A stretch of 64,000 nucleotides of DNA from an uncultured bacterium (lineage in GTDB: Bacteria; Patescibacteriota; Minisyncoccia; UBA6257; 2-01-FULL-56-20). The stretch's first letter is position 1. Each line of letters starts with the position of its first letter. The position numbers and the translations under genes were made by a program. The stretch spans positions 152,489-216,488 of the forward strand of contig CAWJQC010000004.1 of NCBI GenBank assembly GCA_963844965.1, given 5' to 3'. The notes under the pieces are model-generated. The model was not told where the DNA came from. It ran no database searches and saw only the letters and a program-made list of their open reading frames with translations. Below are positions 16,463 through 50,223 of the stretch, piece by piece.

Positions 16463-16468
16463 AAATTA

Positions 16469-17584: not shown

Positions 17585-17590
17585 ATAAAA

Positions 17591-20357: not shown

Positions 20358-21191
20358 TCACTTGTCGCTAACGAGCGGCACAAAACTGAAACCGAAATAC
20401 TCTTTCTCTTTCCAGCCGGAGGCTGGTCCGCCTTTGGCGGAAACACCTTTCCCTGAAATTTTATCCAAAACGACGATGCTTTGTCCAACGGGAGCGACGA
20501 TGCGGCCGCCGATCTTGAGCTGATTCTTCCATTCTTTGGGTATCAGCTCAAGCACGGATGAACGCGGATAAGACGCGGATTGAAGCTGATTCTCAATGGC
20601 GGCGCTTGCGAGAATCTTGTCAAATCCTCCGACCGGCAAAAATTCTTTTGGCGCGCCGCGATAGCCGTCGCCGCAATGAAATTTAACAATCCCCTTCTCT
20701 ACAAAATTGTATTTGCGCACGTTCACCTCGCCGAATTTGCACAGTTCCTGGATGCGTTCTATGGCTATCACGCATCCCGCGGATGTACGCTGAACTGACG
20801 CGGAACTACGCGGAATTTTTTTCGCATTAAGCCGCGCAGCATTGCTAGGAATTTTTTCTGCGTTATTCTGCGTACTGTCCGCGTTTATCCGCGCGGCTCT
20901 GCTCACACAGTATGCGAGCAGAGCCGACGTCCAGCCGGAGCCCGCACCGACATCCAGAATTTTTTCTCCCGCGTGCGGCTCGAAAAGCTCCAGCATGAAC
21001 GCCACGGTAAGTGGCTGGGAAATCGTCTGCCCATGACCGATGGACAAAGGATAATTTCCGTAAGTCTCTCCCATCGTCTCCGGCAAAATGAAATCCTTGC
21101 GGTCAATTTTTTCAAACGCCTCTATCAAGCGGGGTGTTTTTAGGTATCTGTCTTTTATCAAGGACTGTACTAAAAATTCTTTATCTGTCAT
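20358..21191 (-). CDS. pcm: Protein-L-isoaspartate O-methyltransferase with a ~45-aa low-complexity insertion
   Basis: MTDKEFLVQSLIKDRYLKTPRLIEAFEKIDRKDF…GHGQTISQPLTVAFMLELF…ILDVGAGSGWTSALLAY. The insertion is RINADSTQNNAEKIPSNAARLNAKKIPRSSA. Confidence 0.8.
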   Translation of the reverse strand: MTDKEFLVQSLIKDRYLKTPRLIEAFEKIDRKDFILPETMGETYGNYPLSIGHGQTISQPLTVAFMLELFEPHAGEKILDVGAGSGWTSALLAYCVSRAARINADSTQNNAEKIPSNAARLNAKKIPRSSASVQRTSAGCVIAIERIQELCKFGEVNVRKYNFVEKGIVKFHCGDGYRGAPKEFLPVGGFDKILASAAIENQLQSASYPRSSVLELIPKEWKNQLKIGGRIVAPVGQSIVVLDKISGKGVSAKGGPASGWKEKEYFGFSFVPLVSDK

Positions 21192-21337
21192 CGTATGTAA
21201 AAATTTTATACGCCGATTGCAAAAGAGTAAACCCCCACACCTAAGCATGGGTGTGGGGGTGAACCCCCCGCGCCATAACGAGGATAAAAAAATGGGCCGA
21301 GGGGTTTTACCTCCGGCCCGCCGCAGTTGGACAGCGG

Positions 21338-22360
21338 CTATCGGCGAATGCCGACGCCCTGCGAAAACTGCTTCAGCCAAATTCGCATGAACTCAATGGC
21401 TTTTTCAAATTGCGTAAAGGTCAAACTATGGTCGCCCAGCATATCCAGGATCTGCCGGTCGGGGCAAACCGAGATCACGAGGCGCGCCGGTCTCATTGCC
21501 TTTGCCGCGGCGACGCCGGTAAAGAAATTCGCGTAGTCGTGGAGTTCGCCGTCAGATTCGGCGTAAGCAATAACAAGATCTGCCTCCCAAGAAAGGAAAT
21601 CCCGAAGGGCGCGCCTTTCATAAACATTGAAGGGCTTGCCTTCAACTGATTGATTTTTCGGGAACGAATCATGGTGCAAGATGTGAAGCACTTTTCCGTT
21701 ACGTACAACTTCATCGTCCACACAGGCAAACCAGTCCGAGTCACCGTAAGCAAGGGAGATATCCCCGATGAGATTTACGAACACCGGCTCGTGGTAATCG
21801 GGAATGGAAAATTGCAGCGCCGCTCTCTCAAGGAACGCCAGTCCCTCTTCAAAGGTCCGATATCCCATGAAAGGAAATTCTCCGGAGCCCGTGATGGGCA
21901 TGTACGGATTGCCGGCGAGCATGAAAAATCTCCGATACCTTGAGCGGTTATGGACAAATGCTTTTTCAAACACGCCTTTCAGATTTATATCAATCTCACG
22001 AATCTCACCCCTCGAATCATTCAGCGCGTCCTCAAGAACGACTACGCGCAGACCGTGCGGATTCTTGCCTTTGTGAAGGTAGGTCTCACCTATGGCTCCT
22101 TCTCCGCCCGGGTTGTCTCTTTCAAGATAGCCGAAAATGATATCGGCCTCCGCCGCCATCCATAAATCCAAGCTCCCCCAGCCGTCGTGCGGAAGAGATT
22201 CGTCTGTGCTCTCCGGCCGGTTTCGGCGCGGGTCAAAATAACGAATCATCCTCGAGGGCGGTACGGCGTTCATAATCTCATCGTGCCAGTATATGACCCT
22301 GTCTCCATCTTTCTTCGGGTGCATCCCGCCGGAAAGATACACTGAAATCGGTACGCGCAT
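21338..22360 (-). CDS. Hypothetical protein with two tandem nucleoside 2-deoxyribosyltransferase-like (Rossmann-like) domains
   Basis: 340 aa. Two internally similar halves (VYLSGGMH…DLWMAAEADIIFGYLE and NLIGDISLAYGDSDWF…ADLVIAYAESDGE). Confidence 0.4.
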   Translation of the reverse strand: MRVPISVYLSGGMHPKKDGDRVIYWHDEIMNAVPPSRMIRYFDPRRNRPESTDESLPHDGWGSLDLWMAAEADIIFGYLERDNPGGEGAIGETYLHKGKNPHGLRVVVLEDALNDSRGEIREIDINLKGVFEKAFVHNRSRYRRFFMLAGNPYMPITGSGEFPFMGYRTFEEGLAFLERAALQFSIPDYHEPVFVNLIGDISLAYGDSDWFACVDDEVVRNGKVLHILHHDSFPKNQSVEGKPFNVYERRALRDFLSWEADLVIAYAESDGELHDYANFFTGVAAAKAMRPARLVISVCPDRQILDMLGDHSLTFTQFEKAIEFMRIWLKQFSQGVGIRR

Positions 22361-29948: not shown

Positions 29949-31789
29949 TTATTTCTTCAAAATCTCCCGGAACACCTCCGGCGACAGCTCCACCTTAGCC
30001 ATACTCTGCAATTTCTCCTTACCGCGCCGCTGTTTCTTCCAAAGTTTCATCTTGCGCGTCCTATCGCCGCCGGTCTTGCCGAAATTGCCGAGCAATTTTT
30101 TCATCGCCGGGATCGTTTCACGGGCTATTATTCTCCCCTGCGCCCGTGCCTGGATCGCCTGCACGAACTGCTCCTTGGGCAAAAGATTTTTCAGTCGCTC
30201 AACCGTTGCGCGCCCTTCACGCTCCAGGTCTTTCTTGGGCACGATGCGCGTCAAAGCCGGCACGACATCGCCCACAATTAAAATCTCCAATTTCTCCACG
30301 TCCGCTTCTTCCTCGCCGGCTAATTCATAGTTGAAAGAGGCATAACCCGCGGAAACCGATTTCAACCTATCGTCAAAATCGCGGATAAGTTCGGCAAGTG
30401 GCATCCGGCCGACCAGAAGCAGGTTCTCGCCCATATTTTGGATTTCCGAGATTTCCAGATCAAAAACCATTTTCAGGTTCATGATCTGGTTCAGGTATGT
30501 CTGCGGCGTGAGTATTTCCACTTTAATCATCGGCTGCCAAACCTTCTCCGGCTTATCCGGAAACGCATGCGCCTCTTTAGCAATGAACTCGCGCGAGCCG
30601 TCCTTGATGTGATAGGCGATGGACGGAAAGCTCGTCAAAAAATCCAGATTGAATTCCCGTTGCAGCCGGCTCGCCGTAATCTCAAAATGCAACTGGCCGA
30701 GAAATCCCACTTTCAATCCTCTCCCCAGCGCTTCGTTCGCGTCGGGCTCAAAGCTCAAAGCGGCATCGGTTAGGCGCAAGCGCTCAAGCCCTTTTTTTAA
30801 ATCCTCAAACTTAGTAGCGCCATCGGGATAAAACGAAATAAAAACCACCGGTGCCGGCTCACGGTAGCCGGGAAGCGGTTTCGCTGACGCATCCGGTTTT
30901 GTGACCGTATCGCCGATTTTGATGAGCGCCGGCTCTTTGAGACCAGTCGCAATATAGCCCATACCGCCGGCGGAAATTTTATCCTCCGGCTTCAATTCCG
31001 GCGCGAAACAGCCGGTTTCTTTTATCTTTACTTTCGTTCCCTGGGCGAGCAGTTTTATTTCCTCGCCGCTTCGGAATTCGCCGCTGAACACACGGATGAA
31101 CGCGAGTATTCCCTTGTGGTCATCGTAAAGCGAATCGAAAATGAGTGCGCTCGCTTCGGCATGGAAAATTTCTTTCGGGGGCGGAACTCGCGAATTACCG
31201 CTTCCAAAAGTTCTTTCGCTCCTTCGCCGGTTTTTGCCGAAACCTTGAAAATTTCCCCTTCGTCGACGCCCAAGAGCTCGGCGGTCGCTTTTACGATTTT
31301 ATTCAAATGCGGCAGCTGTAAATCAATCTTGTTCACCGCGCCGATGATTTTGAGCCCGGTCTTGCGCGCCGCGCGGAGATTGGATAAGGTCTGCGCCTGG
31401 ATCCCTTTCGTGCCGTCAACCAAAAGTATCGCGCCCTCAACCGCCGCAAGCGCGCGGGAAACCTCATAAGAGAAATCGGAATGTCCCGGCGTATCTATCA
31501 AATTAAGAATGTATTCTGAATTTGAATTTTTAATTTTCAATTTTGCAATTTCCAAATTGTTTGAAAATTGAGAATTAGAAATTGAAAATTGCGGATGGTA
31601 CGCCATCCGGACGGGCGCCATTTTGATGGTTATCCCCCGCTCGCGTTCAAGTTCCATCTTGTCCAAATACTGCGGCACCATATGCCGCGCGTCCACCGTG
31701 CCCGTGAGTTCCAAAAAACGGTCGGCAAGAGTGGACTTGCCGGAATCGATATGAGCGATAATAACAAAATTTCTGATGTTCTCTTCCAT
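29949..31789 (-). CDS. lepA: Elongation factor 4 (LepA), split by a single frameshift in a G5/C5 homopolymer near 31185-31189
   Basis: The N-terminal GTPase (IIAHIDSGKSTLADR, DTPGH, NKID) is in ORF 31055-31855. The C-terminal LepA domains are in ORF 29949-31091. The frames join at tttcgggggcgg. Confidence 0.85.
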
Positions 31790-31820
31790 ATTGTTGCAGT
31801 GTACAAAAAAAAGCGGCCGT

Positions 31821-32210
31821 TCACAAGGAACGGCCACCAGCGATCTTTCCGGCACACAATTGCCGCAGGAATGGACTACCCTTTATAGTTCCGGCGTAGC
31901 CGAGTGTTTCGCCCACCTTGGCATGAGATTGATAGTAGGGAGCGACGCCTCCTCCGATTTCAACCATGGTTTCATGAGCCCACTTGGCGAGCTCATCGGC
32001 TGGCCTTTCGCATATTTTCACCATCACTATCTCCCGGCCCCCTTCCGACAAAACCAGGCATCCGGGATTCATGTCCAAGCGGGCGCGGAATATCCGCTCG
32101 GCTCCGCCCATAGAAACCCTCACATCGCCCTCCAAGCAAAGGTCTTTCTGTAATACAAGTTCTGCCCTAAGCTCTCCTCTTTCCTCAAAATCATTGCCAT
32201 TTGGTTTCAC
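31821..32210 (-). CDS. Hypothetical protein (possibly a PPC/DUF296-like fold)
   Basis: 129-aa ORF. Weak family resemblance only. Confidence 0.3.
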   Translation of the reverse strand: MKPNGNDFEERGELRAELVLQKDLCLEGDVRVSMGGAERIFRARLDMNPGCLVLSEGGREIVMVKICERPADELAKWAHETMVEIGGGVAPYYQSHAKVGETLGYAGTIKGSPFLRQLCAGKIAGGRSL

Positions 32211-32272: not shown

Positions 32273-34237
32273 CTATATCTTCTCCAGCGTCAAGTTCAAA
32301 ATCAGCCGACCGGGCATATTCTCCGTCGCTGATGTTGAGGAACCGTTCAGCCACGGCAGGGTTGTCGTACTATCGTATTCAAAAACCGGCAAATTATTTT
32401 CCTCAAATCTGAAACCGACCGGCGCACTGATCATGAAACTATAATTTCTCGCGGTGCCGGCCTGTTTATCAAAAACAAATTGGTACTTCATGCCGTCCGC
32501 GGGCGGCAGATATAACCTCGTTTTGTAATCAAAAACAATCTGTGATTTTTGGCCGACTGCGAGCTTTGACCATGTCGCGAAAACGTTTTTCCCGGATTCG
32601 GGATGCTCGGAAACCGCCGGATAGTTGAAAACCTTTTCCGTTGACGATTCAATCGCCGCGACGTAATCGTCCGCGACATAGCCGTTCTTCGCATAATTTA
32701 TCGGCGGCGTTATTTTCTTGTCCAGGGTACCACTCGCGTTAACAAGCTCGCTTGTCGGCGGCAAGAAAAGCTGGATGTAATCCAGGTTGGGCATTTTGTA
32801 CCACCAATATATTCCCTTCGCGCCATCGTGTTCGCGCGAAATGATCAAATGATCGGAAACCGTGCCGTCGTCGTTTATCTGGCTTTGCAATTCAACGTCC
32901 TGCTTAACGAAAATATCCGACTTGCCGCCGCCGAGGTTCGCGTCCACAAGCGCCAGATAGTCGCCCTCAAAGTCGGACGGAAGTTCATACGTCTTACCAG
33001 AAAATCCGTAGTAATCCAAAAATTTTTCCAACTCTGCATCCTTGAAATACAGCATTATATCCTTGCTCTGGAGCCAATTGTAGACGAGGCCGAAAAATTC
33101 CTGCTTTTGCGAAGCGTCAAGCGCCTGAAGCTTTTCCAAAATTCCCGCGGCAAGTTCTTTGAGCGCTTTTTTCGGATAAGTGGCGCGGCTTGTCTGCCCC
33201 TCTTCAACCATTTTTTGCAATTCCAAAAGAAAATTATCCTCATTCAAGGCGACGCGCGTGCTTGAAACCACGATCGGGCCAGTGATCCGGAGAATGTCGC
33301 TTATGACGTCGGGCGAAACGGCAATCGCTCCGTCAAACGTCGTGGACGAAGCCGCGTGCATCCCTGAAGCCTCCATAAACTTAATCACCTGCGCAGCCGA
33401 TTTTGAAAAATCAAAAAACCAGTTGGCGTCCGCCGCTTTCCAGCCCGTAACTTCCGCCTGCAATGGCTTTGGCGGAATTATTTTCTCGCCAAAATCTTTC
33501 ATGGCGTCATTTATATCGTGAACATCCACGCTCGCAATGTTCGCCTTATCCAAAGTCACGTCCGCGTAACTTCCGAAAAATCCTCCCGCCGGCCTTATCT
33601 CGGACGGATTTTGGAACATCACCAAAAGATGCCGCGGAGAATCGGACTTCAGCCAACCGAGAAGCGAATCAAGGAAAGACTCATACCGCGCCAGATCCAA
33701 TTTCAGCGGTATGTAAAAATCAAAAGTTGAAGAAGCGAGGGACTTTAGTTTCGCGGCGTCGGAAGAAAGCTCATCGCTCTGTTCGGAGATCCCTTTTAGC
33801 GAATCGTCAACCGTTTCCAGGTGCGAAATAATTTCGTCGCCCTTCCGATTCAAGAGAAGGTCGGGAAGGTTGCTCTCAAAAAATCCGACTTCTTCAGCGA
33901 GCGTAGTCCCTTCCTTAGTGACGCCGCCCAAGCCGGAAATCAAATCGCCGGCTCCGCCGAAGAATGACCCCATCTCTCCCCAAATGCTTCCGTTCGCCTC
34001 TAAACCGCTCCCCGCCGCTCCAAAATTATTTTCGGCGGCGCCGTAATTAAAGTTCTTGAGGTCACTAACTCCCTCTTCCAGTTTATTTAAATTATTAGCC
34101 GCCAAACTCGCCGCCTGTCTGGAACTATCATATAAATGCACCGCGAGCGACACGGCGAAAATCAAAATCAAAGCAACCACTCCCCAAATGATCCCCTTCG
34201 GCAGGGAATTTTTCCGCGGCAAATTTTCTTCGGGCAT
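32273..34237 (-). CDS. DUF4012 domain-containing membrane-anchored protein
   Basis: 654 aa with an N-terminal TM. Central region typical of DUF4012, which is abundant in CPR bacteria. Confidence 0.6.
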   Translation of the reverse strand: MPEENLPRKNSLPKGIIWGVVALILIFAVSLAVHLYDSSRQAASLAANNLNKLEEGVSDLKNFNYGAAENNFGAAGSGLEANGSIWGEMGSFFGGAGDLISGLGGVTKEGTTLAEEVGFFESNLPDLLLNRKGDEIISHLETVDDSLKGISEQSDELSSDAAKLKSLASSTFDFYIPLKLDLARYESFLDSLLGWLKSDSPRHLLVMFQNPSEIRPAGGFFGSYADVTLDKANIASVDVHDINDAMKDFGEKIIPPKPLQAEVTGWKAADANWFFDFSKSAAQVIKFMEASGMHAASSTTFDGAIAVSPDVISDILRITGPIVVSSTRVALNEDNFLLELQKMVEEGQTSRATYPKKALKELAAGILEKLQALDASQKQEFFGLVYNWLQSKDIMLYFKDAELEKFLDYYGFSGKTYELPSDFEGDYLALVDANLGGGKSDIFVKQDVELQSQINDDGTVSDHLIISREHDGAKGIYWWYKMPNLDYIQLFLPPTSELVNASGTLDKKITPPINYAKNGYVADDYVAAIESSTEKVFNYPAVSEHPESGKNVFATWSKLAVGQKSQIVFDYKTRLYLPPADGMKYQFVFDKQAGTARNYSFMISAPVGFRFEENNLPVFEYDSTTTLPWLNGSSTSATENMPGRLILNLTLEKI

Positions 34238-34375
34238 TTTGCGTAAGCTTCTCTTTTAAAACAATTCTACCTCAACCCGTGAAAACTTAAAAATTTGTCT
34301 GAAAAACAGATAAAAAAGCTGCCGGGTTCACCGAGCAGCCACTATTTTTATCCGATAGACGAAATGGGCGGAATT

Positions 34376-34548
34376 ATTTCAAAAGTGAGTGATTACTAGC
34401 GAAATTGCGGGGATGGGAAAGCGTGGCGCTATAAAAACCTTATCCAGCCATTCAAAGCCATAAAAAATCGCGACCACAACCCCAGCCAATAAACAGGCGC
34501 GCAGCAGGCATTTAGCCAACTCTTTCGCGTTCTCTCTGTTCACTCGCA
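34376..34548 (-). CDS. Small (57-aa) membrane protein, not in the supplied ORF track
   Basis: Hand translation gives MRVNRENAKELAKCLLRACLLAGVVVAIFYGFEWLDKVFIAPRFPIPAISLVITHF with a strong SD (gaaggaggaagcag) before the ATG at 34548. Confidence 0.4.
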
Positions 34549-34652
34549 TCTGCTTCCTCCTTCAAAAATTGACCTCTAAACTTTATACAGCAAAACGCGG
34601 AAAGGCGCAAGTTCTGAACGCTGGAGTTTTTATCGGAACATATTTTGATATA

Positions 34653-36671
34653 ATGATTTCAATGGAAAGCGTCCTCAAAAAAATTTCGTCTTATTCGGCT
34701 ATCTGGGTTCTCATTTTAATCTGCCTTGTGTCTTTCTCGCTCATGCTCTGGGGCGCACGTACCGACTCCGCCATCATGGACGAACTCGCGCACATTCCCG
34801 CCGGCTACGGCTATGTACATAATTTTTCCTACGACCTGAATCCCGAACACCCGCCGCTCGTAAAGGCATTGGCGATGCTGCCGGTTCTTTTTCTTAATCC
34901 AACCTATCCAACGCAGGACACCGCCTGGACAACCGACGTAAACGGCCAGTGGGCAATGGGAACGAAATTCCTCTACGAATCCGGCAATGACGCAAATCAA
35001 ATCCTGCGATTGGCGCGCGTGGGTCCCACGTTGCTCACAATCCTGCTAATCGTTCTTATATACATCTGGTCGCGGGAACTTCTCGGTAATTGGTGGGGAC
35101 TTTTGCCCGCGTTCCTCTTCGGATTATCGCCGACAGTCCTTGCTCACGGACACTACGTGACAACCGATATCGGAGCGGCATTCGGCGCCGTCTTTGCGAC
35201 TTATTATTTCCTGAAATTACTTCAGGGACCGTCGCGCAAACGGCTCATCTACGCAGGATTGGCGTTCGGCATTGCCACCATCACCAAATTTTCAACAGCG
35301 CTCCTCGTCCCCTATTTCATAATCCTGTTACTTGTGTATTATATCGCGGGAGTTTTACGGGACTGGAACCAAACCGATGCGGGCCGGAGATTTCGGCGAT
35401 TCGCCAGACGCGCCTGGAATTACCTTAAAACAATCGTGGCAATTTTCGTCATTGGTTATGTTTTGATCGTCTATCCGGTGTACTTTCTCTTCACCGTCAA
35501 CTACCCGCCCCAAAAACAAACGGCCGATACCGAATTTATCCTGACGTCTTTCGCAAGCGGCCCCACGCCAACCGGCCAAATTTGCAAACCGGCGCGCTGT
35601 CTGGCGGATCTGGATATTTGGCTCACGAAAAATCCGGTAACGCGCCCGCTCGCTGAATACATGCTCGGTGTTTTGATGACCTTGCAACGCTCAGCCGGCG
35701 GTAACACGAGCTATTTTCTCGGCCAGGTCTCGGCCGCCGGCTCGCCGCTCTACTTTCCGCTAATTTATTTATTGAAAGAACCTCTGCCTACGATACTTAT
35801 GGTTCTCGTCGCGTTCGCCGTGAGCCTGTGGGGAATAGCCAAAAAGATCAAAAATCAATTATCCCCAAAGCGGAACAAATTCGCCGCGGGGCTGGCAAAA
35901 ATCAAAAACAATTTTCTTGATTATTTAGGCGTGAACTTTCCGGAATTTTCAATGATCGTTTTTATAGTCATTTACTGGGGCTGGAGTATACAAAGTCCCC
36001 TGAATATCGGCTTCCGTCATTTACTGCCCACACTTCCGTTAATATACATACTAACCGCCGGCGTCTGGAAACGATGGGTAACGGGAATACGGCCGGCCGC
36101 AGGCCTATTTGGATTTGCTTTCGTGTGGTCCACGTTCAAATCGCTTTTTACAAACCTGCTCAAATATTTTCTTCTCGTATTACTTCTCCTGTGGTTCGCC
36201 GCGGAAACTGCCTTCGCCGCACCTTATTTCCTTTCATACTTCAACGAGATCGGCGGCGGTATCTGGGGCGGCTACCGTTACGTTACGGACTCAAACTATG
36301 ACTGGGGACAGGATCTCCTGCGGTTGCAGAATTTCGTTTCGGCGCATTCGGAGATAGACAAAATCGCTGTTGATTATTTCGGCGGCGGAAATCCTAAATA
36401 TTATCTCGGCGATAAAGAAACAGATTGGCAATCTTCAAAAGGTAATCCCGCCGACACGGGCATTCACTGGCTCGCAGTGTCCATAAACAACCTACAGGGC
36501 GCAATCCAGCCGCTCGCGGCTGGACAGCAGAGAAATCCGCAGGATGAGTACGGCTGGCTCACGGCCCTGCGGCCGCCCGCCTCCACGGCGGGCAAGCCCG
36601 CGCCGGGACTCGGCAACGTACCCGAACCGGATTTCAGAGTCGGCACGTCAATATTCATCTATAAGTTGTAG
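34653..36671 (+). CDS. Glycosyltransferase family 39-like (ArnT/PMT-type) polytopic membrane glycosyltransferase
   Basis: The first periplasmic loop has the DE motif (AIMDELAHIPAGY). ~12 TM segments. An extended -10 (tgatataat) lies immediately upstream. Confidence 0.65.
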   Translation: MISMESVLKKISSYSAIWVLILICLVSFSLMLWGARTDSAIMDELAHIPAGYGYVHNFSYDLNPEHPPLVKALAMLPVLFLNPTYPTQDTAWTTDVNGQWAMGTKFLYESGNDANQILRLARVGPTLLTILLIVLIYIWSRELLGNWWGLLPAFLFGLSPTVLAHGHYVTTDIGAAFGAVFATYYFLKLLQGPSRKRLIYAGLAFGIATITKFSTALLVPYFIILLLVYYIAGVLRDWNQTDAGRRFRRFARRAWNYLKTIVAIFVIGYVLIVYPVYFLFTVNYPPQKQTADTEFILTSFASGPTPTGQICKPARCLADLDIWLTKNPVTRPLAEYMLGVLMTLQRSAGGNTSYFLGQVSAAGSPLYFPLIYLLKEPLPTILMVLVAFAVSLWGIAKKIKNQLSPKRNKFAAGLAKIKNNFLDYLGVNFPEFSMIVFIVIYWGWSIQSPLNIGFRHLLPTLPLIYILTAGVWKRWVTGIRPAAGLFGFAFVWSTFKSLFTNLLKYFLLVLLLLWFAAETAFAAPYFLSYFNEIGGGIWGGYRYVTDSNYDWGQDLLRLQNFVSAHSEIDKIAVDYFGGGNPKYYLGDKETDWQSSKGNPADTGIHWLAVSINNLQGAIQPLAAGQQRNPQDEYGWLTALRPPASTAGKPAPGLGNVPEPDFRVGTSIFIYKL

Positions 36672-36770
36672 TGATTTGAATTCACAACAGCCAACCGCCA
36701 ACACCTTTTATCCTAAGATTAAAACGGATCAATATTATAAAGGCCGACAAAAAGTTTAACTATAACCAGC

Positions 36771-37223
36771 GTGGCACAAATAACTTTAATAATAATTGCA
36801 GCACTTGTGTTTTTGATTGTAGGCTTGGCTGTGGGCTATTTACTGGAGAAAGAGAAGGCTGAAGGTGAATTTCCGCAGAAGAAAGAAGAGGCACTAAAGG
36901 GATCGAGGGCGGTTACCAAGGGAAAGGTCTCTGAAAATTTTGCCCTGCTGATTCCAGATTTTCAGAAACAGTTTCCGGATTTGAACCTTTCTGAGGCCAG
37001 ATTTATGGGCGGGCCGATTGACTATTTATTTTTTGAAGGAATGGATGAAAAGAAAATCACCAAAGTTGTTTTTCTTGAGGTCAAATCTGGAAAACACCCC
37101 CGCCTAAACGAAAATGAAAGTAGTTTGAAAGACGCCATAGATGACGCTGAAAAGAAGGGTGCGAGCGTGATTTGGCGAGAATATAAAATTCCAGAAGATA
37201 CAACAGAAAACCCAGAGAACTGA
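36771..37223 (+). CDS. Membrane-anchored PD-(D/E)xK (Hjc-like) nuclease-fold protein
   Basis: N-terminal TM, then GGPIDYLFFEG…VVFLEVKSGK (D…ExK). Confidence 0.5.
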   Translation: MAQITLIIIAALVFLIVGLAVGYLLEKEKAEGEFPQKKEEALKGSRAVTKGKVSENFALLIPDFQKQFPDLNLSEARFMGGPIDYLFFEGMDEKKITKVVFLEVKSGKHPRLNENESSLKDAIDDAEKKGASVIWREYKIPEDTTENPEN

Positions 37224-37378
37224 TACCGCCCGAGGGGACGAACCAATCAGGACAATCAAGATCAATCGGCTGATTCGCTACTTATAACACGACTGCGTCT
37301 TCCCAGCGCGGAGGCTTTCGTTTTGAGAAAACCGTAGCCGCTTTCCCCTACTACATTCTACCTACTACTTTCTACATT

Positions 37379-38326
37379 CTATTTATAATACGCCCTGTTC
37401 TCCACGCGGAAATCAATGTAATCCAGATTATTGAATCCCGGTTTTGACATCAGATCTCTGATAACGGCGAGATCGTTCGCGGCCGAAAAACGCAGGCTGA
37501 AATAAAGTTCCGGGCCGTCATACGTCAGAACCGTAACCTCCTCGTTGGTAAGGTTATTCAGGCGAATTTCCTCAATGTTCAAACCGCTTGATTTCAGCGT
37601 CTCAAAAACCGAGAACGCGTTAGAGATGAATTCCTGCGGCAGAATTGACGAACCCAATCCGATATTCTTCTGCGAATAATCGTCAACCGTCGTTATCAAA
37701 CTTCCTTCGGCCGCAAGCGCGCGCTTGAAAAGAACGCCGTCCTCGTCAAACCACCAACACGACGCGGACAGCTGCGGACCCGCCTGCGCCGACGCTTCGG
37801 CGGGCAGGCTTGACGCTGACAGTTGCTGACCCTCTGTCGTTGTCTGCGTTTCATCCGCCACTGTCCGCGTCTCTTCCGCGTCTGTCTGCGTTCCGTCGGC
37901 GTCTGTCTGCGGTTCCCGAAGGCACCAGATGCCATACGGCTTGCGTTCCTCAACATTCACGGAGACGGTCGCGGAGCGATAGCCCTTCTCGATCGTGAGG
38001 CTTTTTATTTCCGGAATGAACGCCAAATCCGCCGCTGAAAGTTCTTTCGGCCACGCGAGGATATTGTCGAATCCGAGAAGCGCTTTCCATAAATCATGGC
38101 CGCGGAGCACGCTGGACTGGAGGAGCGCCACAATGGTGCTGGAAGATACCGCGCTATTTCCTTCCACGGAGACGGTTTTAACGCGCAGCCACGGCGAACG
38201 AAGCACAAACCACGCGGCGCCGACGAGAAGAATGTAGACGACGAGGCAGGCGAGGAGAATGAAAAAGTACCGCCGCCGCTTCTTGCGCTTTTTCTGCTTC
38301 TCGGGAAGATATGAATCAAACTCCAT
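37379..38326 (-). CDS. ftsQ: Cell division protein FtsQ/DivIB (POTRA) with an acidic Thr/Asp/Glu-rich repeat insertion
   Basis: Basic N-terminus plus TM, POTRA-like region (LRVKTVSVEGNSAVSSSTI), insertion TDADGTQTDAEETRTVADETQTTTEGQQ encoded by gtctgcgt-type DNA repeats. Confidence 0.65.
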   Translation of the reverse strand: MEFDSYLPEKQKKRKKRRRYFFILLACLVVYILLVGAAWFVLRSPWLRVKTVSVEGNSAVSSSTIVALLQSSVLRGHDLWKALLGFDNILAWPKELSAADLAFIPEIKSLTIEKGYRSATVSVNVEERKPYGIWCLREPQTDADGTQTDAEETRTVADETQTTTEGQQLSASSLPAEASAQAGPQLSASCWWFDEDGVLFKRALAAEGSLITTVDDYSQKNIGLGSSILPQEFISNAFSVFETLKSSGLNIEEIRLNNLTNEEVTVLTYDGPELYFSLRFSAANDLAVIRDLMSKPGFNNLDYIDFRVENRAYYK

Positions 38327-38364
38327 ATTCCTATATAAACATATATAATGATAATAACAACTCT

Positions 38365-39615
38365 ATGAGGGCGCTATTCCGTAAAATCAGGGACTCAAGG
38401 TTCCGCCACGAAACCCTAATCACGATATTCATCCATCGCGAGCGGATTTTGCATAATCTCCTGCAATTCCAGAAGATGAACCCGGATGTCAATGTCGCCC
38501 CGGTGCTCAAAAGCAACGCCTACGGCCACGGCCTTGTCCATGTTGCGCACATACTAATGGGCCAATCGCTTCCCTTCCTCTGCGTGGACTCATATGTTGA
38601 GGCGCTCATCCTCCGCAACGAGGGCATCCACACGCCGCTCGTCATTCTCGGCTACACGCCGCTTGAAAATATTGAGCGGAGCAGATTGAAAAACGTGTCG
38701 TTCAGCATAACGAGCATGGAAGAACTGCGGCGGCTGGACTCCAGATGCCGCCTGCCCGCGCAGGCAGGCAAGAACGTCGCCATTCATCTCAAAATTGACA
38801 CCGGCATGCACCGGCAGGGCATTTTTCCCGAAGAGCTCACAGAAGCGCTCGGCATCATGGCGCAAAGCAAAAAAATTGTTTTGGACGGCGCCTATTCTCA
38901 CCTCGCGGATGCCGATACCCCAAAATCCGCGCTCACAAAAAAACAAATCGGGCGGTGGAACGCCGCCGCGCACGAAATCAGAGAAAAAATTCCAAGCGTG
39001 CGCTACTTCCACCTGGCGAACACCGCCGGCAGCCGCTATTCAAAAGAAATTGACGCGAACGTAATGCGCCTTGGCATCGGCTTATATGGGATAGACCCCC
39101 ACACCAAACGAGGATATGCGCCTTCGACGCAGAATTCAGTAAATCCTCGTTCTGGTGTGGGGGTAAATCTCCTGCCCGCCCTAGAAATGAAAACTCGCAT
39201 AACCTCCGTGCGGAAAATCGCGGCTGGCGAAAGCGTTGGCTACAACGCGACATTTACCGCCAAACGCGAAATGATAATCGCCACGATTCCCGTCGGCTAC
39301 GCCGAAGGCCTTGACCGCCGGCTCTCAAACCCCCGCACCAGAACGGCGAGTTTATCTACACAGGACACGCGCTCGCCGTTTGGTGTGGGGGTCAAGAACA
39401 TAATTTGTCCCGTTGTCGGCCGCGTCAATATGAACATAACTTCCATTGACATCTCACGAGTTCCCGATCCAAAAATTGACGACGAGGTCCTGGTCGTGAG
39501 CGCCGACCGCGGTGCGCCGAACTCAATAGAAAATATGGCGAAGCTCTGCGGGACGATTCCCTACGAATTTCTTATCCGCCTCCCCGCGCAGATACGGAGG
39601 GTCGTTTGTCCATAG
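38365..39615 (+). CDS. alr: Alanine racemase, carrying two short insertions that share a GVGV motif
   Basis: PLP-binding APVLKSNAYGHG. C-terminal VGYAEGLDRR … GRVNMN. Insertions at ~39115-39180 and ~39335-39405 share ggtgtgggggt[ac]aa. Confidence 0.8.
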   Translation: MRALFRKIRDSRFRHETLITIFIHRERILHNLLQFQKMNPDVNVAPVLKSNAYGHGLVHVAHILMGQSLPFLCVDSYVEALILRNEGIHTPLVILGYTPLENIERSRLKNVSFSITSMEELRRLDSRCRLPAQAGKNVAIHLKIDTGMHRQGIFPEELTEALGIMAQSKKIVLDGAYSHLADADTPKSALTKKQIGRWNAAAHEIREKIPSVRYFHLANTAGSRYSKEIDANVMRLGIGLYGIDPHTKRGYAPSTQNSVNPRSGVGVNLLPALEMKTRITSVRKIAAGESVGYNATFTAKREMIIATIPVGYAEGLDRRLSNPRTRTASLSTQDTRSPFGVGVKNIICPVVGRVNMNITSIDISRVPDPKIDDEVLVVSADRGAPNSIENMAKLCGTIPYEFLIRLPAQIRRVVCP

Positions 39616-39630
39616 AAAATTGTTAGCGCG

Positions 39631-40573
39631 CTAATCCACAAATAATTTCTTTTTCAGTTTATGCGTATTGCCGTGACCAAGTAGCCCAAGGTACGACGCC
39701 CTCGTTTCTTCCGAAGGACCCCTGCTTAATCTTTTTATCATTCGCCGTTTCGTCGCGCTACGTAGTACGCGATGGTCTGGAAAATGAACCCAGCCGAGGA
39801 AATCGACGCCGGAAGCCAAGGTTTTTATAAAAACTTTCTGCGGATGCAGGCGCAAACGCAAGCGGTTCTCAAGAAAATTCCGAATTTTCGTGATTTGCGA
39901 TTCCAGCCAGGTACGGTCGGAGGAAAGAAAAACGAAGTCGTCGGCATAGCGGATGTAATATTCTGCTTTTAATTTGTGTTTTGCAAACTGGTCAAACTCA
40001 TTCATATAGACATTCACGAAAAGTTGCGAAGTCAGATTGCCGAGCGGCAGGCCTATGCCGGGCCTGCCGGAAGAAAAACTGCCTATAATTTCCCGGAGCA
40101 ACCAAAGAACATCGCCATCCGGTATGTAGGAAGAAAGAATCTCGAGCAAAATTGTGTGGTCGATGTTCGCGAAAAACTTCTTGATATCGCATTTCAGGAC
40201 CCAACAGGTTCTGGTATTGTCTGGCGCCGGACTTGCGTGCGAACGAACGGAAGCGGTCAAGTGCGGCGTGCGTGCCCTTGCCAACGCGGCAAGAAAACGA
40301 ATCGGCTATAAACGTCCGGTCAAAAAATGGGCGGAGGAGGCCGCAGATGGCATGGTGCAGAAAACGGTCGCGCACGCTCGCCTTATGGATATTCCTCGGC
40401 TTCGGGTCGCAGATATTGAACGCTTGATATCCGCCGTGGCGGTAGGTATGATTTATCAAATCGGCGCGGAGGGCGAAAAGATTGTCCATTAGACAGAACT
40501 GTAATTCCCGGACATCACGCTTGCCGCGCTTTCCTTTCAAAAACTCCGGCCAAGTTTCCAAAAAATTTTCCAT
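39631..40573 (-). CDS. Diversity-generating retroelement (DGR) reverse transcriptase, interrupted by one frameshift near 40215-40250
   Basis: N-terminus MENFLETWPEFLKGKRGKR…FNICDPKPRNIHKASVRDRFLHHAI…CRVGKGTHAALDRF. Motifs VLKCDIKKFFANIDH, GLPLGNLTSQLF (the DGR-diagnostic LGxxxSQ), YIRYADDFVF, HPQKVFIKTLASGVDFLGW. Confidence 0.85.
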
Positions 40574-40613
40574 TCCGGCGATTTTTTCCAAGCCGCCGCC
40601 AAATTGAGCTTTC

Positions 40614-40997
40614 ATGGACAAAAATTCACACGTAACCCCCCGACGGAGTAGCTTACCCATCATTCAACATCTTATCGCTACGTACAAACTTTGGCACGAA
40701 TTTTTGCCGCACGTACCGAAAGACGCCCGCTACACGTTGGGAAGCAAAATTGACGTCTCGCTCATAGAAACGATTGAGGCCGTTTTTTCGGCGAGCTATC
40801 TCGGCGGCGAGAAAAAATTACCGTATCTGCAAAGAGCCGCAGCCAAACTGGACCTTGTCAAATTCTTTCTGCAAACTCTCTGGGAAATCGGGGCGCTGGA
40901 CAATAAAAAGTACATAGTGCTTTCCGAAAAATTTGACGGGGTCGGAAAAATGCTCGGCGGCTGGTTGCGGCAATCTCAAAAACAAACTCCGGCTTGA
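40614..40997 (+). CDS. avd: DGR accessory variability determinant (Avd, four-helix-bundle family), divergent from the RT
   Basis: 127 aa. YKLWHEFLPHVPKDARYTLGSKIDVSLIETIEAV … AKLDLVKFFLQTLWEI … VGKMLGGWLRQ matches the bAvd/TIGR02436 pattern. Confidence 0.7.
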   Translation: MDKNSHVTPRRSSLPIIQHLIATYKLWHEFLPHVPKDARYTLGSKIDVSLIETIEAVFSASYLGGEKKLPYLQRAAAKLDLVKFFLQTLWEIGALDNKKYIVLSEKFDGVGKMLGGWLRQSQKQTPA

Positions 40998-41017
40998 TGC
41001 CGGAGAAATAAAGTGAT

Positions 41018-41145
41018 TTGCAGAAGGCGAGGAACCACCAGTTGTCGTTCCACCTGTTGCCCCAGTAGTTGAGGTTCAGCTTGCGGTTCGAGGCATTGCC
41101 GTTCAGGTACGCCACGTTGCGATTGTCGTTCGGGATCCTGCCAGG
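41018..41145 (-). repeat. DGR template repeat (TR)
   Basis: ~128 bp homologous to the VR at 41523-41649. 13 mismatches, all at TR adenines on the coding (minus) strand. The TR translation is Asn-rich (NDNRNVAYLNGNASNRKLNLNYWGNRWNDNWW). Confidence 0.9.
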
Positions 41146-41414
41146 AAATATGCGGAATATCATCCGTACCACCGCCCGTTGAATAATCTCCGGGTTGAAT
41201 CGTATTCGGGATCTCCTCCGGTTGTGATCGGAGTAATCCGCCAACATCCCGCACCAAGTAGCTTTATTTTTTGAAATTCACGGCCGCGCTGGAGACAAGC
41301 GTGCCCGTCTCCATTCCGGGCGCGTAAATTCCGGAATTCGGCCGTTCGAAGCCGTAGCCGCGGACAGTGTCGCCTACTATCCAAATTAATTCTACTACCT
41401 ATTCAAAAACAAAT

Positions 41415-41460
41415 CCCCCACGCAAACATATGCTGGCGCATATACTCACGTGGGGGGTAA
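41415..41460 (-). terminator. Nested-hairpin terminator downstream of the DGR target gene (cccccacg…cgtggggg + T-run on the minus strand)
   Basis: 8-bp outer stem and inner atatgc/gcatat stem, followed by atttgttttt in minus-strand sense. Confidence 0.5.
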
Positions 41461-41518
41461 AACAAAACTCAAGTGCCCAAGGGACAAAAAGTTCAAATGT
41501 CCCAAGTGCAAAGTACTG

Positions 41519-42139
41519 CTACTTGCAGAAGGCGAGGAACCACCAGTCGTCGTGCCACCTGCCGCCCCAGTAGTTGAGGTCCAGCTCGCGGCTCGAGGCA
41601 CGGCCGTACAGGTACGCCACGCCGCGATCGTCGTTCGGGTCCTGCCAGGAATCGCCGAGGGCGGCTAACGGAAAATGGGCAGCCAGTTCGGCCGAATCGG
41701 GATTGGATTTAGAGAGATCCGCAAGTTCTTTCGGAATACCCGGTCGCAGACCCATCTTGTCCAGGCGAACGGCGGCGTCGTCGGACTCAACATACTCGCC
41801 GAAATTCACGAGAACCGCTTCGGCTTCAACCCGGCCCTTGCCGACAACTTTCTTGAAATTCTTGTCGGTCAGATTGGAGTTGACGTAGTTGAATCCGCTC
41901 GCCGTCTTGGCTTCGAGCGGCTCGTCATTGTTAATAATGACATGGAACACCGCGCGCTTCACGCGACCGACAATTTCCGCGACAAGGTCAACGATTTTGC
42001 CGAAGAGCGGACTCCCATCCTTCAACGCGTCGTAAAACTGTTCGTCGGATAAGCCGCGCTCCTGGCGCGCCCTATCCAAAGCGACCCAGAAACTCGCCGC
42101 AAATCCTGCTCCGCTTACCACCGTAGATGGTTTTGACAT
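41519..42139 (-). CDS. DGR target protein (variable protein) with a C-terminal variable region
   Basis: ~205 aa ending …DPNDDRGVAYLYGRASSRELDLNYWGGRWHDDWWFLAFCK. The last 40 codons form the VR. Confidence 0.8.
   Translation of the reverse strand: MSKPSTVVSGAGFAASFWVALDRARQERGLSDEQFYDALKDGSPLFGKIVDLVAEIVGRVKRAVFHVIINNDEPLEAKTASGFNYVNSNLTDKNFKKVVGKGRVEAEAVLVNFGEYVESDDAAVRLDKMGLRPGIPKELADLSKSNPDSAELAAHFPLAALGDSWQDPNDDRGVAYLYGRASSRELDLNYWGGRWHDDWWFLAFCK
41523..41649 (-). repeat. DGR variable repeat (VR) at the 3' end of the target gene
   Basis: See TR. A 25-nt 3'-terminal block (ttgcagaaggcgaggaaccaccagt on the plus strand) is identical to the TR, consistent with an IMH-like region. Confidence 0.9.
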
Positions 42140-42471
42140 GGCACTTCTCCTTTGGCGGCACACCCCTCGTTCCGGCAAATCGTGCTGTCGGAATCCCAGA
42201 TGAACCGCATGGTTACAGCTTTCAGCGCATATTGCCCCTCACGCGCTAAAAGCTGTAACCATTGCACAAGTAGTCATATTTTCAAGGTACGCCTTAATTA
42301 TACACCCAAACACTTATTGTGTCAAGAGCGCGTTTTGGGAACGACAGCAAGCCGCGCGTAATCCCAACCCCCGCCAAGCACAGCCACCAATTCACACCCC
42401 AACCCTCCTCAATTTCGCTTTCCTCCCGAACCCCGGTAGTAGAGCAAAGCTCACCACCGGGCTACGCACTT

Positions 42472-45691: not shown

Positions 45692-46705
45692 GTGAAAATT
45701 TTTAACGTCGGCGAGCTGATGTTCCAGCATATGGAAAGCATCGGTATCAACCTGAACAGGAAAAATATCCATCAGGTTTCGCCGCTCACGCGGCAGGTGG
45801 CAAGATCGGCAGTGCTCAAGGGCATCCTGGGTGAAATAACCTACGACTCGGGCAAATACGACGCCGTCGTAATCAACATCCACGCGCACTTTTACTGGGA
45901 CGACGTGTTAACCGAAGCATACGACACGTATCTCAATAATTTCCTGCGAGCAGAATGGAATCCACTCCTTGTGACTTTTATCAACGACTTCAGGCCGATA
46001 CTGCAACACCTCAAATCACGCGAACAGTGGAGGAATCAAAAACTGGATGCCCAAACCATCCTCAACTGGCAAAACAGCGAGGTCATGACAACGTCCATGC
46101 TCGCCAAGTTCGCCGGTAGGCAATTTGCTCCTGTCGCCACGACGCAATCGCCGGCGGAATTGTTCTATCCTCTGGTTTTTCATCCGGAGATCGAAACGGC
46201 TTATATTGCCACACCCATCTCGCACCTACGCGACGTGGAAGCCAGAAAACCGGTGGACGAGTTCATAGAAAAACTCCGTAAACTGCGACTGTTCGCGCTT
46301 TTCAACCCACTTTCCGTGGAAGTCGTCGGCGCCGTTCACTTCGACAAACACGAATCGACCGACGAAGATATACTCGTCTATCACCACATTGTGAACCGCG
46401 ATCTTTACTGGTTCGTGCGGAATAGCCAAAAGATAATCGTCTACTGGCCGAGGATCGCCGTGCCGAGAGAGGTTGAAGAAAATCCTGAGCTTTTCAAACG
46501 CTGGCCGGAAAGCGTGGCATCCCCCGGCGTTGACCACGAAACTCACGAGGGGTATGGCGAAGGAAAAGATGTCTGGGTGGTGTTCTGCGGCGATAAGACC
46601 AGCCCGTTCCTCGTCAAATACCGCACCGAGTTGTTCCTAGGAGAAGAGGAATTCTTCGGGTTCCTCAAAGAAAGATATCCCGACAGGAAGAACCTTGTCT
46701 GGTGA
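45692..46705 (+). CDS. Hypothetical protein
   Basis: 337-aa ORF with no recognisable motif. Confidence 0.4.
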   Translation: MKIFNVGELMFQHMESIGINLNRKNIHQVSPLTRQVARSAVLKGILGEITYDSGKYDAVVINIHAHFYWDDVLTEAYDTYLNNFLRAEWNPLLVTFINDFRPILQHLKSREQWRNQKLDAQTILNWQNSEVMTTSMLAKFAGRQFAPVATTQSPAELFYPLVFHPEIETAYIATPISHLRDVEARKPVDEFIEKLRKLRLFALFNPLSVEVVGAVHFDKHESTDEDILVYHHIVNRDLYWFVRNSQKIIVYWPRIAVPREVEENPELFKRWPESVASPGVDHETHEGYGEGKDVWVVFCGDKTSPFLVKYRTELFLGEEEFFGFLKERYPDRKNLVW

Positions 46706-46802
46706 TTCCCGCACCCCCGCGCACGCGCACGGGGGCTTTTGTTCCCCAAAAAGCCGGGGGCAAGCTTGTCAAACCGCCGCCTCCGCGTTTATAATATTAA
46801 AA

Positions 46803-47824
46803 ATGCCCGCCAAACAAGAAGTTTCTAAAATTGAAAACATCCGCCACTCTCTGTCCCATCTCCTTGCCGCCGCCGTCCTCAAGAAATTTCCGGATGCGAA
46901 GCTCGGCATCGGTCCGGTCATTGAGAACGGTTTCTATTATGATTTCCTCCTGCCGAGCCTGCCTGACGGCAGTCAGGGACACTTCGCGCCTGACGACCTC
47001 AAGGAACTTGAACGAACCATGCGGCAGCTCATAGCACAAAATTTGCCGTTCAGCGGCGAAAAACTGACGCCCGCCGCCGCCAAAAAACTTTTCAAAGACC
47101 AGCCATTCAAACTTGACCTCATCAAAGAATTCACCAAAGCAAAAGAACCGCTTTCAATCTACAAGACCGGCGACGCTTTTTTTGACCTTTGCAGTGGCGG
47201 TCACGTGGACAGCACTAAAGAAATAAATCCCGACGCCTTCAAGCTTGACCGGCTTGCCGGAGCCTACTGGCGCAGCGACGAAAAAAATCCGCAACTGCAA
47301 CGAATTTATGGCTTGGCGTTTGAAACGAAAGAGGAATTGGAAAAATACTTGAAGCTTGTTGAAGAAGCGCAAAAACGCGACCACAGAAAACTGGGTAAAC
47401 GTCTTGACTTGTTTACTTTTTCAGATATGGTCGGCAGCGGTCTCCCGCTTTGGACACCGAGAGGAGCTCTGGTCCGGGGATTGTTGAATGAATATGTAGA
47501 ATCGCTACAAGCAAAAGCCGGATATACCCAAGTTTGGACGCCGCAGATCGCGAAAGCGGAACTTTTCAAAACATCCGGCCACTACGATAAATACCGGGAA
47601 AGCATGTTCCGCGTAAAATCAAATTACTCCGACGAGGAATCTTTCTGAAACCCATGAATTGCCCCCAGCACACGCAGATCTATGCAAGCCAGCCGCGGAG
47701 CTACCGCGACTTGCCGCTGCGTTATACCGACTTCGCGATGCTCTACCGCGACGAAAAACCCGGCGAACTGAATGGCCTCGCGCGCGTCAGATCGTTCTCC
47801 CAGGATGACTGCCATATTTTCTGC
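46803..47824 (+). CDS. thrS: Threonyl-tRNA synthetase, N-terminal ~55% only. It has a frameshift near 47640-47655 and ends abruptly at the QDDCHIFC motif.
   Basis: TGS/second-additional-domain region, then [28 protein letters not shown]…[14 protein letters not shown] in a second frame. No continuation beyond 47824. Confidence 0.8.
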
Positions 47825-47829
47825 CACGG

Positions 47830-50223
47830 CCTTATTACGTCATGGAACTGGTGCGCGGCATCAAAATCACGGATTACTGTGACCAGAACAATCTTTCCAC
47901 GCGGGAACGGCTGGACCTGTTCATTCAAGTTTGCCAGGCCATCCAGCACGCGCACCAGAAAGGCGTCATCCATCGCGACATCAAGCCGTCGAATATCCTC
48001 GTCACTGTGAACGACGGCGTGCCCGTGCCCAAGGTCATTGACTTCGGCATCGCCAGGGCGACACAGGGACGGCTCACCGACAAAACTTTGTTCACCGCGT
48101 TCGAGCAATTCATCGGCACACCCGCCTACATGAGTCCCGAACAGGCGGTATTGACCAGTCTGGACATTGATACGCGCAGCGACATCTACAGCCTGGGCGT
48201 TCTGCTCTATGAATTGCTCACCGGCAAAACCCCCTTCGATGCGAATACCTTGCTTCAATCCGGGCTGGACTCGATGCGCCGCACGATTCGGGAAGTTGAA
48301 CCGCCGAAACCTTCAGCGCGGTTGAGCACGATGCTGGATGCCGAACGGGCGACCACGGCCAGCCACCGCCAGACGGAACCGCCCAAACTGATTCATCTGG
48401 TTCGCGGAGACCTGGACTGGATCGTGATGAAGTGCCTGGAGAAGGACCGCGGGCGGCGCTACGAGACGGCGAACGCCGTGGCGATGGACCTCCGGCGGCA
48501 TTTGAGTTGCGAACCGGTGCTCGCTTGTCCGCCCAGCCGGCTTTATGAGTTTCAAAAGACGGTCCGCCGCCACAAATTCGGCTTCGCGGCGGCGGCGGCA
48601 CTCATCACAGTGCTCGCGATCGGCGTGCTGGTGAGCTGGTCGGAAATGATACGGTCGCGGCGCGCGGAGCGGGAGCAAGCGCGTCTGCGCCAGCAAGCCC
48701 AGACCGAAGCGGCCAAGAGCCAGCAGGTGGCGCAGTTCCTCAAGGACATGCTCAACGGCGTCGGACCGAGCGTGGCGTTGGGTCGCGACACGACAATGCT
48801 GCGGGAGATTCTGGACAAGACCGCCGAGCGGGTGGGTAAAGACTTGAAAGACCAGCCGGATGTGGAAGCCAATCTGTGGAACACTCTCGGCGACGTTTAC
48901 TTGGATCTCGGCGAATATCAGAAAGCGGAAGCGATGCAGCGCGCGGGGTTGGCGATACGAATGAAACTGTTCGGCCACGAGAATTTGTACGTCGCCGTGT
49001 CGCTCTGGGGCTTGGCCGACGCGCTTCGGCGCAAAGGCAGCTTTGCCGAGTCGGAAACTTTGCTTCGTGATTCGCTAACGATTTTTAGAAAGCTGCGCGG
49101 TGATGAGAATCGGGACGTGGCCGCAGAGCTCTCCATGCTGGCCGACGTGCTCCGCTATGAAGGCAAGCTGGACGAGGCGGAGCCGATGCAACGGCAGGCG
49201 TTGTCCCTGAACAGGAAACTGTTCGGCAACAAAGATATAATGGTGGGTATTTCACTCAACAACCTGGCGCTGGTGCTCCGGTGGCAGGGCAAGTTCTCTG
49301 AAGCGGAAACGATGTTTCGCGAAGCGCTGGCGATATACAAAAAAGTGTTGGGCGACGAGGATCCAGAGATCGCCATTACCCTCGACAATCTGGCCAACGT
49401 GCTCCTCGACCAAGGCAGACTGACCGAGGCCGAAGCCACGTGTCGAGAGACGTTGGCAATGCGGAGAAAACTGCTGGGCAACGATCATCCAAAGGTGGCC
49501 GAGTCACTCAACAAACTGGCTTGGGTGCTTCAAAGGCAAGGCAAGCTGGCTGAAGCGGAAACGATGGTTCGCGAGGCGCTGGCGATGCTAAGAAAGTCGC
49601 AGGCCCGTGAGACTCCTGAGGCAGCCGACTTGCTCGGCAACCTGGCTTACCTTCTCCAAAGTGAGGGTAAGCTGAATGAGGCCGAAACCATGCAGCGCGA
49701 GGCGTTGATGATACAGAGAAGATTGCAGGGTGACGAGGGCCTGCGGGTGGGCGATTCGCTCGCCCAACTGACAGCCATCCTGCTTGACGAAAACAAATTT
49801 TCAGACGCCGAGCCGCCGGCTCGCGAGTGTCTGACCATAAGAGAGAAGATGATTCCTGATCTCTGGTGGACTTTCAACAGTCGTAGCCTGCTGGGCGGCA
49901 GTCTCCTGGGGCAGAAGAAATACGCGGAGGCCGAGCCGTTGCTCCTCTCCGGCTATGAGGGCATGAAACAACGCGAGGACAGGATTCCAGCGTATGGCAA
50001 GTTTCAACTGAAAAAGGCCCTTCAGCGCCTGGTGCAACTCTACGAAGCCACGGACCGACCCGATCAAGCCGCCCAATGGAAGCAGAAGCTGGCGGAGTTC
50101 GACAAGGCCGAAACCGGGAAGAAGGCCGACGCGCCCCAATCGCAGGCTGACGCCATCACTCCCGTCCTTCTGCCTGAAGCCAAAGCGCTGATCGAAGGTG
50201 AGGGCGCAGTCACCAGAAAGTAG
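47830..50223 (+). CDS. Ser/Thr protein kinase with the N-terminal lobe missing (starts at subdomain V), followed by a TM segment and a long TPR-repeat domain
   Basis: [15 protein letters not shown], catalytic loop [47 protein letters not shown], then at least 8 TPR-like repeats. Confidence 0.8.

Follow-up and report, generated by a model that had tools for sequence, protein, structure and literature searches.

Our understanding of DGR reverse transcription derives from a single phage element, the Bordetella phage BPP-1 DGR (mtd-avd-TR-Sp-brt), in which the RNA essential to the process is located 3' of the TR. This 140-nucleotide functional RNA (Sp) occupies the interval from TR to brt; avd stands upstream in the same orientation. 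Residues 47–56 of Sp pair with residues 117–129 of the TR to prime cDNA synthesis, which is stopped by a duplex just upstream of the TR, then a short stem-loop and adenosines (Handa et al. 2018, PMC6182149; 2024, bioRxiv 10.1101/2023.10.23.563531). The Sp motif is Rfam RT-10, which belongs to a DGR and is part of a series of structured RNAs found beside bacterial RT genes (RT-1 to RT-19; Weinberg et al. 2017, PMC5737381). Retron msr-msd RNA, also a promoter-driven structured RNA by an RT gene, serves as both template and cis-primer; the likeness is one of principle only, as retrons are without a TR/VR pair, Avd or adenine mutagenesis.

Of the DGRs found in nature, a very large share belongs to CPR organisms. 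Among these CPR elements, 90% follow Architecture B3, TR-(avd)-RT, in which avd lies reversed between TR and RT; for these elements the survey gives no account of RNA structure, promoters or terminators (Wu et al. 2018, NAR 46:11, PMC5758913).

The window (the whole 64,000-nucleotide stretch analysed here) contains a standard Patescibacteria (CPR) element of this already-known type. The DGR is complete on the minus strand, in the order target gene with VR, hairpin, TR, antisense avd, RT; the initial annotation had given the same order, and all of its elements lie where it placed them.

42297–42325, minus strand: promoter-like site upstream of the target gene (TTGACA-17-TATAAT, 12/12; a consensus match only)
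41519–42178, minus strand: DGR target ORF; the source gene call starts at 42139 and gives 206 aa (P0317, exact match in the source contig)
41523–41651, minus strand: VR, 129 nt, at the 3' end of the target ORF
41415–41456, minus strand: hairpin downstream of the VR, 19 bp, then ATTTGTTTTT (T tract)
41018–41147, minus strand: TR, 130 nt
40614–40997, plus strand: avd, 127 aa, divergent from RT; Pfam bAvd PF22296, E 8e-12
40424–40452, plus strand: predicted promoter-like site for avd (TTGATA-17-TATGAT), inside the RT coding region
39631–40615, minus strand: RT, with Pfam RVT_1 on the C-terminal part; 327 aa without stops once one base is removed

The VR spans the last ~43 codons of ORF 41519..42178, and thus the 3' end of a protein-coding target gene; the called ORF (41519..42139) has no Pfam match. 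The 19-bp hairpin that follows could be an intrinsic terminator or an inverted repeat flanking the IMH. No copies of the TR/VR repeat beyond these two were found in the 64-kb window. Against an iterated profile, avd scores E 2e-49. The RT contains the motifs LPLGNLTSQ and YADD, and a protein search finds it 59–75% identical to thousands of Patescibacteria DGR-type RTs. Features of DGR membership are therefore present in the form of a DGR-clade RT, an adenine-specific TR/VR pair, a VR at the target 3' end, and Avd; the exception is an intact RT reading frame, the ORF being split in the assembly by one extra base at 40219–40237.

The RT start codon is the ATG at 40615–40613 (homologues begin 'MKIQL'), which overlaps the avd ATG at 40614–40616 by 2 nt. 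The distance of 40 bp previously given for the two starts refers to an internal Met at 40573. The start codons stand back to back in the palindrome CATG, leaving no gap between the genes. For most relatives, the distance from the RT start to the first avd codon aligned to the profile is 6–35 nt, a noisy measure from which exact start overlaps are not derivable.

For comparison, the 80 best RT matches were taken from species-representative genomes, all of them Patescibacteria-type MAGs. As nearest relatives these 80 loci describe a clade, not all DGRs, and any wider claim rests on the published survey. In 75 of the 76 relatives with enough upstream DNA, avd lies on the opposite strand directly beside the RT start. 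A simple repeat search mapped the repeats in 54 relatives, each with the VR, the TR 390–560 nt further on, the reversed avd, and then RT, with adenine-specific mismatches and the same spacing. The window element shares with CPR B3 DGRs (PMC5758913) this order and orientation and a Patescibacteria MAG host; it has no accessory gene other than avd between TR and RT, an RT 59–75% identical to hundreds of such RTs, and adenine-specific TR/VR differences. The sole difference is the extra base in the assembled RT gene.

The initial annotation had called the layout unusual, and had proposed comparing avd orientation in related loci, many divergent avd genes being the outcome that would make it unremarkable; this is the outcome obtained. 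The order does differ from the textbook avd-TR-brt of the Bordetella phage, and a new DGR architecture, or an inversion local to this genome, might be read from that. Such a reading has next to no probability and was rejected: B3 is already published (PMC5758913), and 75 of 76 relatives keep the layout at the same spacing.

Two relatives deserve separate mention. L070 (4086–4739) is the one relative with another layout, having the module of RNA domain (described below), TR and reversed avd intact but inverted relative to RT. L025 (3712–5950) carries two avd copies (4317–3973 and 5950–5609) and two copies of the RNA domain (3712–3819 and 5345–5449) upstream of one and the same RT; this arrangement may have arisen by tandem duplication of the RNA-TR-(avd) module.

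Between TR and VR there are 13 substitutions, all located at TR adenines (13 of 31 A), with no other substitution in ~117 nt; a single 1-nt indel lies at 41135, near the 5' edge. Adenine makes up 26% of the TR core, so that the chance expectation of 13 out of 13 at adenines is ~1e-8. The Logan contig L081, from an independent k-mer assembly of run ERR10755942, matches window positions 43372–41650 with one mismatch and breaks off precisely where the VR begins at its 5' edge. Such a break would be expected if the VR varied from read to read, and is no more than a hint of ongoing mutagenic retrohoming.

The RT gene is encoded in two frames. Two tblastn HSPs cover residues 1–133 and 126–328 in frames -3 and -1: the N-terminal third lies on ORF 39998..40663, the remainder on ORF 39631..40284, and the frame switches between 'FARKSGA' and 'NTRTCWVLKCDI'.

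40219–40237, minus strand: interval with the single extra nucleotide (+1); its 19 nt equal six homologous codons plus one base

Aligned to 15 homologues, the stretch from 'F-A' to 'N-T-R-T' has as many codons as theirs and one nucleotide in excess. DNA alignment to L082, the closest relative found (82–90% identical), requires one 1-nt gap at this place ('GGCGCCAGAC' versus 'AGCG-CGAAC'). The extra base most likely falls within 40219–40225 (GCCAGAC). RT is in one frame in all 80 relatives, none of which carries the extra base. That the frame is broken once near 40215–40250, as first annotated, is thus borne out. The accompanying remark that the site is not in a homopolymer holds for long runs, but the site ('GGCGCCAGAC') does contain GG/CC dinucleotide runs, the same class of context as an error in lepA considered below. 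The two explanations offered at that time, a sequencing indel or an inactivated RT, were the right ones to choose between.

(A programmed frame change, in which a +1 ribosomal frameshift or transcriptional slippage would regulate RT dosage, was also considered and rejected as scarcely conceivable. Nothing beyond the break itself speaks for it; the N-terminal frame does remain open for ~80 codons past the site. The frame change occurs in none of the 80 relatives, and the site is without a slippery or homopolymeric run, a stop, a rare-codon pause or a nearby conserved structure.)

The extra RT base is probably a consensus error of the assembly, and no biological feature. The break is attributed to the assembly because another gene in the same window, lepA, has a proven one-base error. 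On the minus strand lepA is split at ~31186 into ORFs 31055–31855 and 29949–31091, with the GTP_EFTU domain in one and EFG_C/LepA_C in the other. Proteins of the source contig recur as exact matches in Logan assemblies of run ERR10755942, and one contig from that run, L084, equals the window at 3635 of 3636 positions, differing by one extra G in 'CGCGAGGTTCC'. L084 encodes an intact LepA of 613 aa; the window lepA has a 1-nt deletion, GG being read as G. Since the two sequences are otherwise identical and LepA is intact in L084, the lepA break is a consensus error. A further one-base frameshift affects thrS, an essential gene (46695–47830, plus strand), whose frame changes at ~47640, with 'SDEESF*' just before; no Logan contig was found for thrS. 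Comparison of another Logan contig, L083, with window positions 33697–37314 uncovers three indels, all at GATC sites, and here a 700-aa PMT_2 gene is intact in the window version and split in the L083 version. The three indels suggest noisy reads with motif-linked errors. Such indels are a typical product of methylation-sensitive long reads, which we infer to be the platform behind ERR10755942.

The element itself also bears on this question. Apart from the extra base, no further defect is present in RT, avd, TR, VR or the RNA domain. Across 165 codons spanning the break, dN/dS relative to L082 is 0.10, and the two halves of RT are similarly conserved, with 74–76% identity downstream of the break and 75–84% upstream. 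A historic origin of the VR divergence, as previously suggested for an inactivated RT, is therefore not favoured: no non-adenine substitution separates TR from VR, and RT shows no sign of relaxed constraint. The break of L081 at the VR edge likewise fits an element without decay.

The rival explanation is that the frameshift is real, RT having been inactivated very recently by a one-base insertion that the VR diversity predates. Defective DGRs are indeed common: Wu et al. (2018, PMC5758913) discarded more than half of their DGR candidates for stops or truncations, and inactive elements are frequent in genome data. The source gene calls treat RT as broken, and the only record of the window RT in protein searches is the source's own 172-aa C-terminal fragment, P0251. 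No independent sequence contradicts the extra base: no Logan gene call was found across it; a JGI metagenome scan with anchors flanking the break returned no contig; nor did any contig turn up when avd, the ftsQ-like gene and P0251 were looked up by exact match; and protein searches with the merged RT and with its N-terminal and C-terminal halves found no intact or independent copy, the best matches being 75% and 84% identical. Moreover, the proven lepA error is a deletion, whereas the RT change is an insertion. These points are set against an element free of other defects, its low dN/dS, a TR/VR pair without non-adenine substitutions, the proven one-base error in lepA of the same contig, and the matching break in thrS. 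Recent inactivation is thus unlikely, though it keeps an appreciable share of the probability; an assembly error is the preferred reading.

The nearest relative, L082 (Logan SRR22388118; RT 84% identical in the N-terminal part), has a 1-nt RT deletion of its own at ~1250 ('ATACC-GATGGC'), which places P0131 out of frame after 'SSYIP'. This counts against the artefact reading, although the L082 sequence comes from a raw k-mer assembly.

Several other irregularities were noted in the window. The thrS gene ends abruptly after 'QDDCHIFC' at ~47826, and the sequence continues midway through a Ser/Thr kinase domain, which is matched from profile position 77 onward and belongs to a 793-aa kinase-TPR protein. 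At ~47826–47842, GC content climbs from ~0.51 to ~0.59, and it stays high to 64000. This junction has the look of a chimeric join and already exists in the deposited contig, from which both proteins are on record. With its one-base indels and this chimeric-looking join, the contig is one whose frameshifts are not to be read as biology.

Elsewhere, the alanine racemase ORF alr (38311..39615) contains extra segments between 39085 and 39402, bounded by inverted repeats that are based on TGGTGTGGGGGT / ACCCCCACACCA (arms 39085–39110 with 39377–39402, and 39141–39164 with 39329–39352); these could be in-frame inserted repeat elements. The stretch 14000–18000, which covers minus-strand ORFs of 901 and 371 aa, has a GC content of 0.38–0.40 against ~0.51 around it, and might be an island that was acquired. 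The 340-aa minus-strand ORF at 20358–21380 aligns twice, in stretches set apart from each other, to the PCMT methyltransferase profile of 210 positions, as though it had an insertion or extension; in another frame, it shares 43 nt with the following ORF, also of 340 aa (21338–22360).

The interval between VR and TR is conserved and non-coding, spanning 234–599 nt in relatives. (A small conserved ORF in this spacer was considered and rejected, as the conserved blocks of one and the same locus do not share a frame.) Alignment of 55 loci, the 54 relatives with a mapped TR together with the window, reveals a structured RNA domain directly 5' of the TR.

41148–41380, minus strand: structured non-coding RNA domain, ~230 nt, directly 5' of the TR, with strong covariation across loci
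41365–41344, minus strand: helix H1, from the covarying alignment
41313–41290, minus strand: helix H2, from the covarying alignment
41254–41243 with 41161–41150, minus strand: helix H3, ending 3 nt before the TR
41239–41236 with 41212–41209, minus strand: helix H4, from the covarying alignment
41195–41191 with 41178–41174, minus strand: helix H5, from the covarying alignment

The five helices comprise 40 pairs. Across the 55 loci, 96.1% of cells are paired, compared with 40–47% when the partner is slid, and compensatory changes occur in 36 of the 40 pairs. Changes on both sides number 631 cells, compared with 109–176 when slid; the observed values were reached in none of 500 shuffles. A sequence profile of H3–H5 matches 73 of the 80 loci, always on the RT strand and always ending 470–580 nt upstream of RT; of the seven loci missed, six are without upstream DNA. 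In Rfam 15, which includes the RT-1 to RT-19 motifs, no family matches positions 40500–41700 even at E up to 5. No earlier description of the 5' domain was found in the DGR literature compared (Paul et al. 2017 lies outside that comparison).

On the other side of the TR, the picture is different from BPP-1. RNAalifold finds no consensus pair across the 55 loci in the 170 nt 3' of the TR, antisense to avd, and the window clade has no conserved structured spacer RNA of the BPP-1 type between TR and RT. The 3' flank holds only a terminator-like hairpin of ~40 nt, and a candidate promoter element precedes the 5' domain.

41389–41394, minus strand: candidate -10 box (TAGAAT) of the TR RNA, read by eye and weaker than the relatives' sites
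40977–41005, minus strand: terminator-like hairpin after the TR (CTCCGGC-ATCAA-GCCGGAG + TTTGTTTTTG), overlapping the avd stop codon in antisense

Among the 55 loci, window included, promoter-like -10 sites on the RT strand cluster 220–280 nt upstream of the TR (39 hits), and the alignment has a conserved TGnTAnAAT-like block. Sites on the avd strand peak 140–180 nt inside the RT ORF (38 hits). No comparable -10 peak lies just upstream of RT in these loci. A GC-rich hairpin with a T tract follows the TR in 44 of the 55 (43 of 54 relatives, and the window), compared with 3 of 55 in a control region. The promoter-like peak, the terminator-like hairpin, the lack of a peak at RT and the inverted L070 module, which means that TR and RT cannot be co-transcribed in that relative, together make the TR RNA look like a separate RNA gene, as judged from these sequence signals. 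RT itself is probably expressed through read-through or weak promoters. A TR-RT co-transcript running antisense through avd, which the initial annotation had taken to follow from the layout, is thereby weakened as an obligatory product, given the hairpin after the TR here and in 43 of 54 relatives and the inversion in L070.

Two short segments of this region are complementary.

41262–41269, minus strand: candidate primer strand AAAUAAAG, just 5' of H3, complementary to 41013–41006
41006–41013, minus strand: candidate primer-binding site CUUUAUUU, between the TR end and the terminator hairpin

Over the 55 loci, the mean duplex energy is -8.2 kcal/mol for cognate strands and -5.6 kcal/mol for non-cognate strands, and none of 2000 permutations reaches the observed value. 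The strands co-vary between loci: AAAUGAAG/CUUCAUUU, AACGAAGA/UCUUCGUU, CAUACGA/UCGUAUG and AAAUAACA/UGUUAUUU. It is on this alignment-free permutation test that the primer-like pairing rests; a fixed-register pairing count is weaker (0.72 versus a background of 0.65) and noisy, as anchors shift between loci, and RNAalifold on the full-length alignment did not recover long-range pairs across the TR. The complementarity suggests that the strand at 41269–41262 may act as a primer.

Read 5' to 3', the window presents the primer-like strand, H3, the short H4, an A-rich conserved stretch, H5, H3' and the TR. This order appears to mirror the BPP-1 arrangement, displaced to the 5' side of the TR. Both elements have RT and Avd, adenine mutagenesis between TR and VR, and a hairpin after the VR. 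By inference from the sequence, they would also share three features of the RNA: a duplex directly upstream of the TR (H3 in the window, 'cPRT Stop' in BPP-1); a short stem-loop and A-rich residues coming after that duplex; and pairing of one strand to the TR 3' edge (41269–41262 with 41013–41006 in the window, Sp 47–56 with TR 117–129 in BPP-1). They differ in the structured RNA, a domain of ~230 nt on the 5' side of the TR in the window and the Sp on its 3' side in BPP-1, and in the orientation of avd, antisense in the window. A tentative reading, possible though short of an even chance, is that the functional DGR RNA of B3 elements is a rearranged version of that of the Bordetella phage, with the stop duplex, protein-binding helices and priming strand gathered in the ~230-nt 5' domain of a self-contained promoter-to-terminator RNA gene. 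If true, this would explain how an antisense avd can be accommodated between the two.

The anatomy, observed directly like the adenine-specific TR/VR differences, the conserved layout and the covarying RNA structure, combines with the Bordetella phage model to suggest a mechanism, in which the transcription units, the priming and present activity are the conditional parts. A separate RNA would be transcribed from its own promoter, comprising the folded 5' domain and the TR and ending at the terminator-like hairpin. RT and Avd would copy the TR into cDNA, with errors at adenines, and this cDNA would replace the VR at the end of the target gene. Transcription of avd would run the other way, starting at a promoter located within the RT gene.

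In itself, the window element is of little significance: it is a routine CPR DGR, and its RT 'pseudogene' is probably a consensus error. The strongly covarying 5' domain and the candidate primer strand could be of greater importance, as they provide a concrete, testable model for cDNA priming and stopping in CPR DGRs. Moreover, the 5' RNA domain would aid the annotation of TRs in CPR genomes.
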